From: a virus
Virus record (IMG/VR): IMGVR_UViG_3300031417_000382
Span: 2,150-66,149 of that record
Strand: one strand, 5' to 3'
Length of the DNA stretch: 64,000 nt
Notes under the pieces: generated by a model
Told to the model about the DNA's origin: nothing
Databases searched by the model: none
The model's input: only the letters and a program-made list of their open reading frames with translations
Made by a program: the position numbers and the translations under genes
Part shown: positions 12,218-17,778 of the stretch, piece after piece
Position numbering within the stretch: position 1 is the stretch's first letter
Layout: every line of letters begins with the position of its first letter

Positions 12218-12865
12218 TTAGTCGCTCTTGCTCCATCCGTGCGCTTCCAATACTGATCTATACTCTCGAGCTATAGCAAGAGCTTGAGTTTCACGATAGC
12301 TCTCCATTGAGTCAATTAACTTTTTTACTGTGCTTTTCGAGAAATCGAGATGAAACTCGCGGTCACAGAAGAGAAGTACCTCTTCTAGCGAAGGACGCAT
12401 AAACCCGCCTCCGACCGGAAAGTGAGCTGCAGACATAGGTACAAGACTGTCTTTAAACAGATCCCAGTTTTGTTGAGCATGAGTAAACTCTCCACGCTGG
12501 GCGTGTATGTGAAGATGAGAGTTTGGTACTTTTGCCGTATGCATGGCTTTAACGTACTCGTAGCGAAAAATAGGCTCTGTACGCTTTGCCGCACCGAAAA
12601 ACACGTGAAACTCAGATTTTGCAACTGAGAGATACTTGTTTTCCCTGTCTAACTCTAGCCCGAAAAGGAATGACGCTAATATCTTACGACTCGAGCTGAT
12701 AACGAAAAGCTTGTCCGCGTTCCTTGATGTAGAAATCGTAACTCGTCCAGTATTAGTAGCAGAGAGCTCGATCTCAAATGGACTTTCGCCGAAGCAATCG
12801 CTAAAAAGCTTATTCAGGTCATCTCTGAACTGAACAGCTAACTCATCAAGCGAGCGCGAACTCAA
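12218..12865 (-). CDS. Hypothetical protein (FRYEY...HLHIHA...HFPVGG..RPSLEEVL motif)
   Basis: ORF track 12218..12961; TTG at 12865 overlapping the upstream small ORF is the likelier start. Confidence 0.6.
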   Translation of the reverse strand: MSSRSLDELAVQFRDDLNKLFSDCFGESPFEIELSATNTGRVTISTSRNADKLFVISSSRKILASFLFGLELDRENKYLSVAKSEFHVFFGAAKRTEPIFRYEYVKAMHTAKVPNSHLHIHAQRGEFTHAQQNWDLFKDSLVPMSAAHFPVGGGFMRPSLEEVLLFCDREFHLDFSKSTVKKLIDSMESYRETQALAIAREYRSVLEAHGWSKSD

Positions 12866-13010
12866 GACTATCCAACCTATATGCCTGGCTAATCTCTGTA
12901 TTACTAGCAAAGTCCCAGAAGTCGAATCTCTGTTCAAGCTCTTCGCGGGAGTCAACTTCAAGATCTACCCGAAGCTTATCGCGTTCTGCCAGAAGTTCCT
13001 GCCTAGTCAT
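12846..13010 (-). CDS. 54-aa acidic helical protein (not in ORF track)
   Basis: ATG 13010 with GAGGAG RBS: MTRQELLAERDKLRVDLEVDSREELEQRFDFWDFASNTEISQAYRLDSLEFALA. Confidence 0.6.
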   Translation of the reverse strand: MTRQELLAERDKLRVDLEVDSREELEQRFDFWDFASNTEISQAYRLDSLEFALA

Positions 13011-13092
13011 AGTAGATCTCCTCTTTTTCGAGTACCTTGCATCCTGGGGAGTGAATGCAATCTCCTTAATACTCGAAAAGCCTACATTGGCA

Positions 13093-13099
13093 AATATCG
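13093..13099 (-). promoter_or_regulatory. CGATATT motif
   Basis: Upstream of 13010 ATG, followed by a leader hairpin (13025-13079). Confidence 0.4.
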
Positions 13100-13137
13100 T
13101 ATCTAACGCTCCAGACTAGCGAAACTTTGACGAAGCT

Positions 13138-14334
13138 TTACACTTTTGAGAGCCGCGCTAGCTCCTCTTCAGTGGGTGGGCGAAGGATACTAAGCTCGAT
13201 CGAGCTGTTGCTCTTGAGCTGGATAGCCTGGTCTAACACACGCTTTACACTTTGCTCAGCTAAAAGCCACTGTGACTCCCAAACAAAGAACAATCGGTAT
13301 CCTTTTGTGCGAGCCAGCTCGAGCTTCTTCGTATGGTAAGCTACTGGGTCCCCACCGGTCTTTTCAGAGTGTTCGCCGTGCCAGAAGTCGCCGTTATACT
13401 CAATACCTAGCTTAAGCTCGGGGATCACTATGTCAATCTCGTATGGCTTGATGATTTTACGGTCACGAAGCTCGATATCCCAGGTCTGAGTAAGATATGC
13501 TGCTAGCTCTTTCTCTCCTTTACTAGCTTGACACTTGCCGCAACCAAACTTAGCTCTAACATCGTGTGTAGTGAAAGTATCGTGGCCTTCGTCACAGCGC
13601 CACCAATACTGTTGCCAGTTTCGACAGCCGATGGTGTCAAGTATCTCGAACGGTTGCTCGTTCTTAGGGCTCCATAAAGGACGGAGTTCGGGAAACTCAG
13701 TCATGGCGGAGATCACTCCTGGGATAGCCTTGTAGCCAGAGCATACGGGACAAGCATCAGTATCATTTGCCATCTTGACGATGATTCGGTCCCACTCGTG
13801 ACCTTTCTCACAAAGCCAAAGACCGCGGTCACCACTACCTGCAGTTACTTCGGTAGGAGTCTTAGAGTTGTTCGGGCTCCATAGCTTAGAAAGATCTGGA
13901 CGTGTAGTAGCCATGTCGTTAAACCCCATTACCACTACGCGGTTAGTGCATACAGGGCATAGAGGCTTACTAATTTTGCGCTGAACCGTCTTGATGGTCT
14001 CGTGCCCAAGATCGCAGCGCCAGAGATACTCAACGGATGAACGTAACCCTACTGAGCTAAAAGCGATTAGGTTGTCAGGAGACCAGTAAGGCGCAAGTTC
14101 CGGGTGCAAAGTAGCAGCGTCGTTAAGTCCTAAGACAAGCTCTCTCCCACTGCAGACTCTGCAAGGTTTTTCGGAGCGAAGTAGGTGACGTATAGACGCA
14201 GTGAAGCTATGGTCGCAATCAACTGCGTGGGCTTTTACTTCTTTACGCGAGTTAGGCGAAAGCTTAGCTGCTGAACCTTCTGAAAGCTTTACGCCGTAAA
14301 GCGTAAGCTTGTCTATCTGAAACTGATCGATCAA
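13138..14334 (-). CDS. Zinc-ribbon-repeat endonuclease (DUF4379-like repeats + Vsr/PD-(D/E)xK-like domain), putative free-standing homing endonuclease
   Basis: Repeated W.C..GH....CPVC units; C-term YEIDIVIPELKLGIEYNGDFWH...YHTKK...GYRLFFVWESQW; lies directly downstream of nrdE. Confidence 0.75.
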   Translation of the reverse strand: MIDQFQIDKLTLYGVKLSEGSAAKLSPNSRKEVKAHAVDCDHSFTASIRHLLRSEKPCRVCSGRELVLGLNDAATLHPELAPYWSPDNLIAFSSVGLRSSVEYLWRCDLGHETIKTVQRKISKPLCPVCTNRVVVMGFNDMATTRPDLSKLWSPNNSKTPTEVTAGSGDRGLWLCEKGHEWDRIIVKMANDTDACPVCSGYKAIPGVISAMTEFPELRPLWSPKNEQPFEILDTIGCRNWQQYWWRCDEGHDTFTTHDVRAKFGCGKCQASKGEKELAAYLTQTWDIELRDRKIIKPYEIDIVIPELKLGIEYNGDFWHGEHSEKTGGDPVAYHTKKLELARTKGYRLFFVWESQWLLAEQSVKRVLDQAIQLKSNSSIELSILRPPTEEELARLSKV

Positions 14335-14385
14335 TGTTCCATTCCTAACAGCTTAAAGCGGACAGGTGGATTGTTTGGCGCGACC

Positions 14386-14392
14386 AATATCA
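14386..14392 (-). promoter_or_regulatory. TGATATT motif
   Basis: Between nrdE terminator and endonuclease start (TTG 14334). Confidence 0.45.
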
Positions 14393-14396
14393 AAAA

Positions 14397-14453
14397 GAAG
14401 TGGCACCCTGGGGAACAGATCATCGCCAAACAATCCTACCAGGGTGCCACTTC
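14397..14453 (-). terminator. Intrinsic terminator of nrdE
   Basis: 15-bp stem GAAGTGGCACCCTGG / CCAGGGTGCCACTTC followed by TTTTT on minus strand. Confidence 0.8.
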
Positions 14454-14501
14454 AGTTTATCCCACTCGTTTCAGAGTGGAGCTAATTTGATGCCTTAAGC
14501 A

Positions 14502-16859
14502 TCATAGAGCACAGGCCACACATTCATCCCCGTCCTCGTCCAGCTCAACGGCGAAGTTACCCGAAGCCATCATCTGAGAAAGCAGGTCGAGCGCCGGAGC
14601 GTCTACCTTCTTTCCCTCAGCCTGAGCTGCAGCCTCGACAGAGCCGAACTGCTGGATGTCCTTGAGCTTGAGTGCTACCTTCTCTTCGCGCTTCGGGACC
14701 TTAATGGCGTTGCCTACTGCGTTCTCGAGTTGGGTAGAGGCAAGTGCATCCTGTCTAATGCGTGCATAATAAAGGGTTTTAATGCCCTTGCGCCACGCCT
14801 TGATGTAAGCCTTGTTCAGATCACGCGTGGTTGCGTCACCAGTGTAAAAAATAGTTAATGAAAGTCCTTGATCTACGTGAGTTGTAGCAGCGGCGTAGAC
14901 ATCGATGATGGCATCCGGGCCGTACTCGTAAGCGTCACGGTAGTACTCAAGGTTATCGTTGGTCATGTGCGGTGCCGGGTAGTAAACGCGACCGATCTTA
15001 GATTCCTTACGAATCTCGATACGGCCGGCAATCGGGTGAATCGAAGCCGTAGCGTTATTGATATATGAAATACTACCAGTTGGGGGGATCGCCTGACGGT
15101 ACGCGTGGTACATCCCGTGAGTCTGCACCTCTTCAGCAAGCTGCTTCCAATCCTCAGGAGTGGGGATGTGGATGGTGGAGCGCTTCATGAGCTCCTGGAT
15201 CTTGCTGGTTTTTACGAGGTGGAAGTCGCCGTTGATGTACTTGTCGAAGTACGATCCGTCAGCGTACTGCGACTTCTCGAACCCTGCGAACTTCTCGCCG
15301 GTCTCCTGAGCGATCTTTACGGAAGCCTTGATGGTTTCGTAGTTGACGGCGAGGAAGTAGAGGTTGGTGAAGTCAACCGCTTCCTTGGAGTCGTAGTGGA
15401 TGCGCTCGCGGCCGAAGAAGCCGTGGAGGTTCATGGCGCCGAGGCCGACGGCGTGGCTGCGGCGGTTACCTTCGGCGACGGACGGTACGGAGGAGATGTC
15501 CGAGAGGTCCGAGACGGAGGTGAGGGAGCGCATGGCCGCCTCGATGGTCTTCGAGAAGTTCGGGGAGTCGAAGACGTTAGCGATGTTCAGCGAGCCGAGG
15601 TTGCAGGAGATGTCTGAACCGATGGTGGCGTACGAGCCATCAGCGTTGAACTCTGAAGCGGTGGAAACCTGGAGGATCTCCGAGCAGAGGTTGGACATGG
15701 TGATGCGGCCGTCGATCGGGTTGGCCTTATTGACGGTGTCCTCGAAGACGATGTAGGGGTAGCCGGACTCGAACTGGATCTCGGCGAGCGTCTGGAGGAA
15801 GTCGCGAGCATTGATCTTGCTCTTCTTGATCTTCGGGTTTTCTACGAGTTCGTAGTACTTCTCGTTGATGGAGAGCTCGGTGAACGGTACGCCGTATTCA
15901 CGCTGGATCGAGTGCGGGGAGAAGAGGTACATGTCCTCGTTCTTGCGGGCAAGCTCGAAGGTTACGTCGGGGATGACGACGCCGAGGGAGAGGGTCTTGA
16001 TGCGGACCTTTTCGTCGGCGTTCTCGCGCTTGGTGTCGAGGAAGCGCATGATGTCTGGGTGGTGTGCGTGGAGGTACGCGGCACCGGCACCTTGACGTGC
16101 TCCGAGCTGGTTAGCGTAGGAGAAGGCGTCCTCGAGCATCTTCATGACCGGAACCACACCGGCGCCCTGGTTTTCGATCTGCTTGATCGGAGCGCCGAAC
16201 TCGCGGAGGTTGCTCATGTTGAGAGCCACGCCGCCGCCACGCTTCGAGAGCTGGAGGGAGGACTGGATGGCGCGAGAGATGGACTCCATGTTGTCCTCGA
16301 TGCGGAGGAGGAAGCAGGAGACGAGTTCGCCTCGCTGAGCCTTTCCGGCGTTCAAGAAGGTGGGAGTAGCCGGCTGGAAGCGACCGGACATAAGCTCATC
16401 GAGAATCTCTTCGGCAACCTTCTGCATGCCGCGAGCGAGGTAAAGGGCTGTCATGGCGACGCGGTCCTCGTAGCGTTCGAGGTAGCGCTTACCGTCGAAG
16501 GTCTTGAGAGTGTAGGCGGTGTAGTACTTGAGAGCGCCGAGGAAGGTGGGGAAGCGGAAGTTGAACGCGTAGGCGCGCTTGTAGATCGCCTTGACGAACT
16601 CTGGAGTGTACTGGTCGAGAACCTCTTTCTCGTAGTAGTGGTTATCTACGAGGTAGTTGAGCTTCTCTTCGAGGTCGGTGAACCAGACGGTGTTCATGTT
16701 GACGTGCTGGAGGAAGAACTGGCGTGCTGCCTCTACGTCGGACTCGAACTGGATTTTCCCGTCTGCACCTACTAGGTTAAGCTGCGCGTTGAGGGCGGAG
16801 TAGTCGAGCTCGCTGACCGCGGCTCCTGCGTCCTGTAGTGTGTCGATGGTTAGTGACAA
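14502..16859 (-). CDS. nrdE: Class Ib ribonucleoside-diphosphate reductase alpha subunit
   Basis: [58 protein letters not shown], terminal CVAC. Confidence 0.95.
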
Positions 16860-17106
16860 TGTGATGCTCCTCGCGCCTCTTTGTTCTGTCAGTTTTGTGG
16901 GTTAGTGTGGGGTGTAGAACCCCAAGTTTGACGGCGGTGTAGAGAGTCGTCGCTTCGCCGTCAGAGCGAGATACGCTGGAAGAAAACCGTGGTTCTATCA
17001 GGGTTTTGCTTCTATCTTTCGCGGTCCCCGGAAAGCCGGGGTAGGTATCTATCTAACGACTTCTGAAGATTTGGTTCAAGTTATATCGCTTTGATACCGG
17101 CCGCTT

Positions 17107-17778
17107 TTAACGCTGCTCAGGCCTCTCTAACTCGGCCTCTGTGGCGGCTAGTTTTGCCCGGAGTTTCGCGGCTTTCGCCTCGGTCTTCGCGTTAGCAGCC
17201 GCCTTAGCACGTGTTTCGACGCGTGGCTTGACTGCGGATGCTCGACGGCGTAGGTGCGTGTTGAGCGCTGCGTCTCGAGCGTCGGGGATACCGAGTTCTT
17301 CGCGGTTGATCTCCGCTACGGTCTTTCGCATAAAGACGAAGAGGCCGATGATGACGGCTACGATCACCGAGCTGGTGAGAGTGTAGCCGGGGCGTGTGGT
17401 CACCGCGTAGATCACGACGAGTAGGATAGCGGCGATGATGGCTGAGATTCGCTGTCGCCAGGTGGGCGAGAAGCGAGCTCGTACGTTTGTCCACTCGGGG
17501 TCGCGAGCCTTAAAGAATGTCCACCAGATTGCTCCGGCGTACCCGAGGACGAAGAGGGCGACGGAGGTCGGCACGAGTAAGAGCGTGCGCGCCACCATGC
17601 CCCATGAGCCCCACGGGAGGAACAGGTCCGCGGCTACAGTGATGAGTCCGAGGATCGCTGATGCTGCACCGGCGATTAGGAAGAGCTTCTTTCGGTCGGT
17701 GAGGAACCAGTCTCGGATGAGCAAGAGCGCCTCGCGGAAGTTCTTCACTTCGCGGATTGAGTTGAGTACCTGCTTCAT
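17107..17778 (-). CDS. Four-TM membrane protein with basic C-terminal coil
   Basis: Four hydrophobic segments; start abuts RecG-like stop. Confidence 0.65.
   Translation of the reverse strand: MKQVLNSIREVKNFREALLLIRDWFLTDRKKLFLIAGAASAILGLITVAADLFLPWGSWGMVARTLLLVPTSVALFVLGYAGAIWWTFFKARDPEWTNVRARFSPTWRQRISAIIAAILLVVIYAVTTRPGYTLTSSVIVAVIIGLFVFMRKTVAEINREELGIPDARDAALNTHLRRRASAVKPRVETRAKAAANAKTEAKAAKLRAKLAATEAELERPEQR

Follow-up and report, generated by a model that had tools for sequence, protein, structure and literature searches.

The locus described here is the 3′ end of nrdE, a gene for the alpha subunit of a class Ib ribonucleotide reductase (RNR), together with the nuclease gene that follows it, in a viral element from the IMG/VR database (record IMGVR_UViG_3300031417_000382). 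The window, that is the whole stretch of DNA analysed, comprises 64,000 nucleotides (positions 2,150 to 66,149 of the record), and positions below are those of the window unless another allele is named. It lies in an 89-kb record classed as a provirus, which carries replisome genes and further nuclease genes, and the window sequence occurs in metagenome runs of phyllosphere, plant and silage origin. An actinobacterium is the probable host, since chromosomal NrdE proteins of Actinomycetaceae and relatives are 71–74% identical to that of the window.

The nrdE translation shows three Pfam domains in order, PF08343 (E = 5e-29), PF00317 (E = 2e-17) and PF02867 (E = 4e-160, covering positions 1–522 of 523), and contains the NLCSE and PTGSIS motifs, the YY radical-transfer pair and, at the C-terminus, a CxxC tail. 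Between the YY motif and this tail lies an insertion of about 65 amino acids (14505–14714, codons 716–785), which is common to a family of NrdE proteins of 780–788 amino acids and is lacking in ordinary NrdE proteins of 715–725 amino acids. DNA of 13 distinct alleles of this family was compared; a scan of IMG/VR with profiles gave no further match to the C-terminal tail, and a scan of GTDB genomes found no further members. No match to PF00268, the family of the partner subunit NrdF, was found in the 89-kb record (CheckV completeness estimate 31%), and neither nrdF nor nrdI stands in one operon with nrdE. The element seems to carry the alpha subunit alone, and its partner may be encoded elsewhere or supplied by the host.

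The allele of the window is called Q; together with an identical allele, L248, it makes up haplotype A. The nearest other haplotype, B, consists of L088 and L249. The features of the locus, and the genes found at the corresponding place in relatives, are collected in Table 1.

Table 1. Features of the nrdE locus in the window and occupants of the slot 3′ of nrdE in related alleles.
Feature	Position	Strand	Description
247-amino-acid open reading frame	12218..12961	minus	in haplotype-specific cassette; no Pfam or PHROG match
Free-standing gene of homing-endonuclease type, 398 amino acids	13138..14334	minus	DUF4379 treble-clef zinc ribbons and C-terminal Vsr/PD-(D/E)XK-like domain
nrdE terminator	14391..14450	minus	hairpin and T-tract, from sequence reading; left edge of variable cassette
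nrdE	14502..16859	minus	class Ib RNR alpha subunit, 785 amino acids; Pfam RNR_N, Ribonuc_red_lgN, Ribonuc_red_lgC
Patch P3	14739..14783	minus	codons 693–707, includes YY radical-transfer pair; GC3 0.27
Patch P2	14838..14891	minus	codons 657–674; 16/18 codons A/T-ending
Patch P1, wide sense	15039..15092	minus	codons 590–607
Patch P1, core	15051..15083	minus	codons 593–603, PPTGSIS motif; GC3 2/11
Recombination or divergence boundary	15092..15093	minus	between codons 589 and 590; maximum-likelihood change point
Slot, Q and L248			398-amino-acid zinc-ribbon (DUF4379) PD-(D/E)XK-type nuclease
Slot, L088 and L249			341-amino-acid GIY-YIG protein
Slot, L085			GIY-YIG protein with helix-turn-helix
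Slot, L090	L090 5825–6250		frame-broken GIY-YIG remnant, same start offset; stop and frame change
Slot, L251			HNH protein
Slot, L084 and L253			phrog_3339/314-type zinc-finger-array proteins

The nuclease gene and the slot 3′ of nrdE

An earlier reading of this DNA, made from the sequence alone (the sequence-only reading), had pointed to a free-standing zinc-ribbon nuclease beside nrdE. The closer analysis bears this out and places the protein of 398 amino acids among nucleases of the homing-endonuclease type. It matches DUF4379 in Pfam (E = 7e-22), with a further match to MTES_1575 below the cut-off (E = 7e-4), and the PHROG families annotated as ‘homing endonuclease’ or ‘HNH endonuclease’ (phrog_559, E = 3e-27; phrog_3339, E = 4e-24). 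Likewise, tblastn finds matches to phage proteins annotated as Hef-like homing endonucleases, including relatives in Campylobacter phages. The nuclease sequence also shows an acidic-residue motif of the form EID...IEYNG..WH. A sequence search of the PDB with the nuclease domain returned Vsr as its sole match, at a level that is not significant (E = 0.89).

Haplotypes A and B are colinear over a stretch that begins upstream of nrdE and extends about 100 nt beyond the nrdE stop codon, where a cassette with a GIY-YIG gene replaces that of the window. By blastn, homology stops just past the terminator (about 14398) and resumes at about 12214. Across the family, a ClpB-like ATPase gene, a RecG-like helicase gene and a gene for a protein of about 215 residues lie upstream in all 13 alleles, and the slot directly 3′ of nrdE holds nucleases of five types; in the remaining alleles it holds unrelated or unknown genes, or is empty. 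The GIY-YIG remnant of L090 represents the decay stage in the life cycle of a homing endonuclease in the nrdE slot.

Furthermore, a homologue of the window's nuclease was found beside nrdE at a much greater distance. In L002, a 309-kb viral contig of low GC content whose NrdE is 71% identical to that of the window, a nuclease homologue of 568 amino acids starts 135 nt after nrdE (E = 1e-55, 32% identity over 348 amino acids). The nuclease family is thus associated with nrdE in more than one case. Taken together, the variation among slot occupants and the association in L002 indicate that the neighbour of nrdE in the window is a gene of homing-endonuclease type in a genuine hot spot.

Several side observations concern the slot. 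The region between nrdE and different nuclease genes has a common layout in the window (14335–14452) and in L090 (5682–5830), namely a long GC-rich terminator hairpin, a T-tract, the sequence TGATAT and the nuclease start about 50 nt further on; the loop of the hairpin contains a sequence of which an inverted copy lies downstream. In L002 (6313–9993), DUF4379 zinc-ribbon proteins follow nrdE in tandem, the second with a Mom-like domain in place of the Vsr-like nuclease domain. A few kilobases downstream of nrdE, L085 (11543–12331) and L086 (9248–11596) carry a gene like those of ADP-ribosyltransferase toxins (PF03496) and a restriction gene of the GmrSD type. In the window itself, a second nuclease of the homing type (phrog_3339/559/314) is encoded at 38792–40675 and has the architecture of the slot proteins of L084 and L253; a window-wide scan showed no rare-codon patches in its neighbours.

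Three patches of A/T-ending codons in nrdE

The codon style of nrdE, which has 57% GC overall, changes along the gene. The fraction of codons ending in G or C (GC3) is 0.84 in codons 1–565 and 0.68 in codons 566–715 outside the patches described below. At about codon 566 the fraction of C-ending codons drops from 0.61 to 0.39 and that of T-ending codons rises from 0.08 to 0.24. The style of the 3′ part is like that of the rest of the element, and a shift from 5′ to 3′ is also seen in relatives across the family. The C-ending bias of codons 1–565 (15165–16859) is extreme for the element, C-ending codons making up 0.25–0.45 in nearly all of its other genes. This 5′ bias, together with the 96% likeness of haplotypes A and B over the 5′ three-quarters of nrdE (about 88% in neighbouring genes), suggests either recent exchange or strong codon selection confined to the 5′ part.

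Within the 3′ part, three short patches switch to codons ending in A or T. Together they comprise 44 codons, or 5.6% of the gene, with GC3 values between 0.11 and 0.31 (8 of 44 when pooled, 0.18). No gene of the element has a value so low (the minimum is 0.36), and the most AT-rich allele of the family also lies higher. At the DNA level the patches are stretches of 33–54 bases with approximately 33–38% GC. The only AGT (codon 596), TTA (668), TTT (671) and AGA (702) codons of nrdE all fall inside them, as do all three of its TAT codons (599, 697 and 698), compared with 39 TAC codons in the gene. The counts of A/T-ending codons given in the sequence-only reading were exact (9 of 11 at 15051–15083, 12 of 13 at 14838–14876 and 11 of 14 at 14742–14783), as was that of its GC3-rich comparison stretch (1 of 21). 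P2 reaches further upstream than had been described, to codon 657.

The clustering is unlikely to arise by chance. When synonymous codons were shuffled within amino-acid classes over the whole gene, it was never reproduced (p<0.0002), and the sum of the three lowest 14-codon windows gave p=0.001 when shuffling was restricted to codons 566–785 and p=0.003 for codons 590–715. In a scan of all open reading frames of at least 120 amino acids in the 64-kb window, only P2 and P3 fell below a binomial p of 2e-5. Nothing comparable was found in 152 other nrdE genes, the largest deficit in GC3 at the patch sites being −0.19, against −0.47 here; in the GC-rich controls (the 117–118 of the 152 with a GC3 of at least 0.7) mean GC3 at the three sites is 0.90–0.93. 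These controls, together with 58 control pairs (independent pairs of other nrdE genes of comparable divergence), rule out that the pattern is common to nrdE or to GC-rich genes at large. Nor are the patches an assembly artefact, since the identical L248 allele was assembled independently and the sequence has high depth in a second run.

Two descriptions of the patches given earlier need qualification. They had been said to sit exactly at the most conserved motifs of the protein. The motifs are indeed conserved, but so are nearly all residues from 582 to 705, and equally conserved blocks such as RVYYPAP are not recoded, so that placement at conserved motifs does not single out the patches; the association between A/T-ending codons and conservation in the 3′ part gives p=0.05. 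The recoding had also been called synonymous. This holds for most of the changes, but 7 of the 28 patch codons that differ from the nearest haplotype (out of 46 compared) are non-synonymous.

Divergence between haplotypes and insertion sites at P1

The comparison of haplotypes A and B shows that the start of the first patch is also the point at which the two alleles part. Nucleotide divergence is 3.7% in codons 1–589 and 17.9% in codons 590–785, with approximately 12% in the upstream genes. The maximum-likelihood change point between Q and L088 lies after codon 589 (log-likelihood ratio, LLR, 57); 21 identical codons precede the step, and the first differences are found at codon 590. Within the divergent part, the haplotypes have identities of 0.67, 0.76 and 0.68 in P1, P2 and P3, compared with 0.87 and 0.93 in the segments between, and the proportion of differing codons is 28/46 in the patches versus 30/80 elsewhere in codons 590–715 (p=0.016).

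The differences within the patches have a direction. The window has A or T where B has G or C at 20 patch positions, with 3 in the reverse sense, compared with 8 and 10 outside (p=0.006). The preferred C-ending codons are scarce in the patches of both haplotypes, at 0.20 in A and 0.23 in B, compared with 0.39–0.40 nearby and 0.61 in the 5′ part. The patches of B are richer in G-ending codons, such as a run of TCG serines in P1, where its GC3 is 0.85.

Both haplotypes were found in assemblies with neighbouring ENA accession numbers. As a side observation, in the run X2, from a phyllosphere metagenome, haplotype A has a word depth of about 9000 over 12900–17000 of the window, and a contig of 390 bases over 14583–14972, with 51 differing positions (13%), is present at a depth of about 3, indicating two alleles of the 3′ end in one sample.

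Similar patterns are seen in other pairs of alleles. Identity at P1 is 0.63–0.67 in three independent close pairs (Q–L088, L085–L086 and L253–L090), with 0.85–0.95 in the flanks; in the latter two pairs P1 has the lowest identity (0.63 and 0.67, respectively), and P2 is also low. In an unbiased scan of the whole gene, four of the six pairs had their window of highest synonymous divergence at codons 591–609. Relative to a whole-gene null corrected for amino-acid composition, P1 is hyper-divergent in three pairs, P2 in Q–L088 (p=0.003) and L085–L086 (p=0.0002), and P3 in Q–L088 only (p=0.0004). Codon-family switching at invariant serines clusters at positions 596, 598, 606 and 667. Moreover, L253 and L090 also have their change point after codon 589, where divergence rises from 8.0% to 21.0% (LLR 33), and the ratio of 3′ to 5′ synonymous divergence is 4.8, 1.9 and 2.0 in three family pairs, compared with a median of 0.86 in the 58 control pairs. 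Two pairs also gave change points in the vicinity of codon 397, not far from the NLC intein site; these were weak, with several near-equal alternatives, and were not used.

The site of P1 is interrupted in RNR genes of other phages. The nrdE of Enterococcus phage phiEF19G has a group I intron between AP and GSI (RF00028, E = 1e-8), within the PPTGS motif of P1, that of Brochothrix phage A9 has a group I intron at the same place, and the nrdA of Campylobacter phage CPt10 carries a mini-intein of about 145 amino acids directly after PPAGN. The P1 motif is thus a homing site in other phage RNR genes. Relatives have further insertions, at residues 212/213, about 253 and 392. The idea that the patches are scars of former inteins or introns was considered and rejected: the inteins of Corynebacterium phage C3PO and of Miltoncostaea map to residues ~392 and ~218, away from the patches.

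Target-site divergence and alternative explanations

On balance we lean towards the view that the patches reflect nuclease-driven divergence of target sites, held in linkage with the nuclease gene by co-conversion. In the proposed mechanism, nucleases of the slot, both an allele's own and those of its competitors, would cut conserved nrdE sequence in rival alleles. An allele would survive its own and rival nucleases only if its DNA differed at the sites with the protein kept intact, and selection would accordingly favour many synonymous changes, including switches between codon families, towards bases that are rare at the wobble positions of this C3-rich family (that is, one rich in C-ending codons). 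Since a nuclease has to remain with the target that resists it, the block from codon 590 to the nuclease gene would be inherited as a unit and would stay divergent from one haplotype to the other, with free recombination in the 5′ part of nrdE. We infer both cleavage at the patch sites and resistance conferred by the patches from comparison of alleles, and likewise which nuclease may have driven which patch; nothing ties P2 or P3 to any particular one.

Several observations would find their reason in such target-site divergence: the start of the divergent block at the first patch, the similarity that segments between the patches can show, the avoidance of consensus codons in both haplotypes and the recurrence of the P1 motif as a hot spot in independent pairs. 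A conflict with nucleases had already been proposed from the window by itself; that proposal is supported in part: it gains from the type of the nuclease, the turnover of the slot, the divergence peak against haplotype B and the intron and intein site at P1, and loses the argument from conserved motifs. L248, alone among the relatives in having the same patches, has the nuclease as well.

A number of points weigh against this interpretation. Resistance by itself needs no A/T direction. The boundary at codons 589/590 follows a stretch encoding MYHAYRQ that is conserved at the nucleotide level and would favour crossovers without any nuclease; the sharp boundaries in two pairs thus fit co-conversion and fit crossovers in a conserved stretch too. 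When the null is drawn from the 3′ part only, P1 remains hyper-divergent in two pairs (p=0.02 and 0.007) and P2 and P3 are not significant, so that much of the signal is turnover of the whole 3′ end. The fraction of C-ending codons in the patches of eight C3-rich alleles is 0.20–0.27 in the four with an intact nuclease gene and 0.34–0.54 in the others (p=0.03), which speaks for the interpretation, but these eight alleles are related and the association with nuclease presence is not phylogenetically independent. Alleles with the same class of nuclease share no patch sequence, in a sample too small for this comparison. Finally, no intron or intein was found at P2 or P3, either by a tblastn search of about 300 loci or in the three phage genes examined.

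The main rival to target-site divergence is a neutral mosaic, in which the 3′ part of nrdE has been replaced repeatedly by recombination with diverged alleles travelling with the downstream cassettes, some of them of lower GC, and the patches themselves would be short tracts converted from AT-richer alleles outside the sample, the DNA sequence being under no selection. This explains the general turnover of the 3′ end. It agrees with the separate history of the whole 3′ region and its lower GC3 in several family members, with the existence of family alleles of GC3 0.3–0.5 (L250, L084 and L252), and with the amino-acid differences between A and B that accompany the patch edges. At P1, the identity of Q to L084 (about 85%) exceeds that to L088 (about 64%), its nearest relative over the whole gene, which points to exchange. 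However, that figure of about 85% is also the best match of a patch to any sampled allele (80 IMG/VR relatives, 14 family alleles and the low-GC L002), and a blastn search of phage and plasmid records with the 664 bases of the 3′ end gave nothing above about 75%. The pooled GC3 of the patches, too, lies far under the range of the element's genes and below the most AT-rich family allele. Furthermore, the patch sites are peaks of divergence in independent pairs, and L088 leaves the C-ending norm at the same places but towards G. An AT-rich donor that had spanned non-conserved codons equally, which the sequence-only reading had named as a competing cause, is not indicated, as no sampled donor allele matches and the codons between the patches are GC3-rich. 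We judge the neutral mosaic to be unlikely.

A function of the patches themselves appears improbable. They could provide a rare-codon pause for folding, or an AT-rich element in DNA or RNA (a promoter inside nrdE that serves the nuclease gene, a site bound by an Lsr2-like silencer, or one cut by an RNase), and their codons are indeed the rarest of a strongly biased gene and their base composition is suitably AT-rich. Against this, no sigma-70-like promoter was found in 13000–17200, the patches share no repeats or motif, and a regulatory element would leave the divergence boundary and the link to the nuclease slot unexplained. Since neither haplotype B at P1 nor any of the 152 other nrdE genes has such an A/T run, no conserved pause or site is indicated. 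Least probable of all is escape from another sequence-specific attack, by CRISPR (clustered regularly interspaced short palindromic repeats) spacers or restriction enzymes matching conserved nrdE: the logic is that of escape from homing endonucleases, the patch lengths would fit protospacers and the window has other defence-related genes (an HSDR_N-like protein), but the nuclease slot, the boundary at codon 590 and the intron and intein site at P1 would go unexplained, and escape from CRISPR usually takes one or two changes, not a run of 10–16 recoded codons.

A more far-reaching form of the target-site reading can be put forward tentatively, and we would sooner doubt than accept it. Here the nuclease and three synonymous ‘immunity islands’ would form a linked unit, with recombination in effect suppressed from codon 590 to the nuclease; successive unrelated nucleases would each have left a recoded site; and A/T endings in haplotype A and G endings in B would both reflect selection for maximal distance, at the DNA level, from the C-ending consensus that the nucleases evolved to tolerate. 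If true, what can be read here directly from sequence would be nature's equivalent of recoded, drive-resistant alleles.

Should the patches be resistance determinants, a single gene would display how an essential target evolves under attack by several selfish nucleases, through silent substitutions that occur in runs at catalytic motifs, are linked to a nuclease gene and come with a sharp recombination boundary. Rare-codon islands together with a divergence step beside a nuclease slot would then offer an assay-free metagenomic signature of homing-endonuclease target sites, and the haplotypes would supply matched sensitive and resistant substrates for the little-studied architecture of a zinc-ribbon array with a Vsr-like nuclease. 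If they are not, the locus is still a clear case of a nuclease hot spot reshaping the end of a core metabolic gene.

The locus fits a type of system that is already known, and its sequence signature is unusually legible. RNR genes are the phage genes most often interrupted (PMC3653736, PMC2248736). Free-standing endonuclease genes are found beside them, with sites that cover critical residues and different classes targeting the same gene, and co-conversion can extend up to about 2 kb (PMC2988022); MobE nicks the nrdB of T2 at a place where nucleotide substitutions distinguish it from T4 (PMC2790892). The closest parallels are mobE (an HNH gene) of T4 and hef of phage U5, which lie between nrdA and nrdB and, as here, place a free-standing nuclease gene in an intergenic slot beside an RNR gene. 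They act on the coding sequence of the adjacent RNR gene in a rival genome, with co-converted flanks, alleles that differ at the site and unrelated nucleases that swap in one slot (PMC2790892, PMC2988022). Unlike these, the window's nuclease combines a zinc-ribbon array with a Vsr-like PD-(D/E)XK domain, and its presumed target is the 3′ end of an alpha-subunit gene. The element also differs from a T-even phage, being classed by IMG/VR as a provirus and carrying replisome and conjugation-type genes; there are three discrete recoded patches, and cleavage is putative.

A likeness is also seen to SegF, SegG and SegB of T4, intergenic GIY-YIG genes whose products cut several hundred bases away in a neighbouring conserved gene, with co-conversion from the cut to the nuclease gene and localized marker exclusion (PMC2988022). 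The distance of about 750 bases from codon 590 to the slot fits this arrangement; the Seg systems were established by crosses, whereas the evidence for the locus of the window consists of comparative sequence patterns. Homing endonuclease gene (HEG) islands of ICP1 and other phages (Barth, Dunham and Seed 2023, PMC10448857) likewise have HEGs by essential genes, at the edges of blocks of differing identity, and repetitive zinc-finger-type domains; their blocks exceed 10 kb and, as far as the part of that paper drawn on here extends, it does not describe short synonymous recoded patches in a target gene.

The intron and intein systems of A9, phiEF19G and CPt10, which use the PPTGS motif of P1, and the further insertions in RNR large-subunit genes represented by the introns IVS2–5 in nrdE of the Bacillus cereus group, differ in that the nrdE of the window is uninterrupted and its nuclease free-standing, as in the ‘collaborative homing’ of F-CphI and psbA. 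A minor observation concerns another of these insertion sites. Codons 249–259 (16083–16115) form the only other 11-codon window of nrdE with four or fewer G/C-ending codons, and they coincide with the second intron site of A9 nrdE (about residue 253). Haplotypes A and B differ there at the consecutive codons 254–256, within a region that is otherwise 96% identical; the tendency towards A/T at this place is mild and family-wide.

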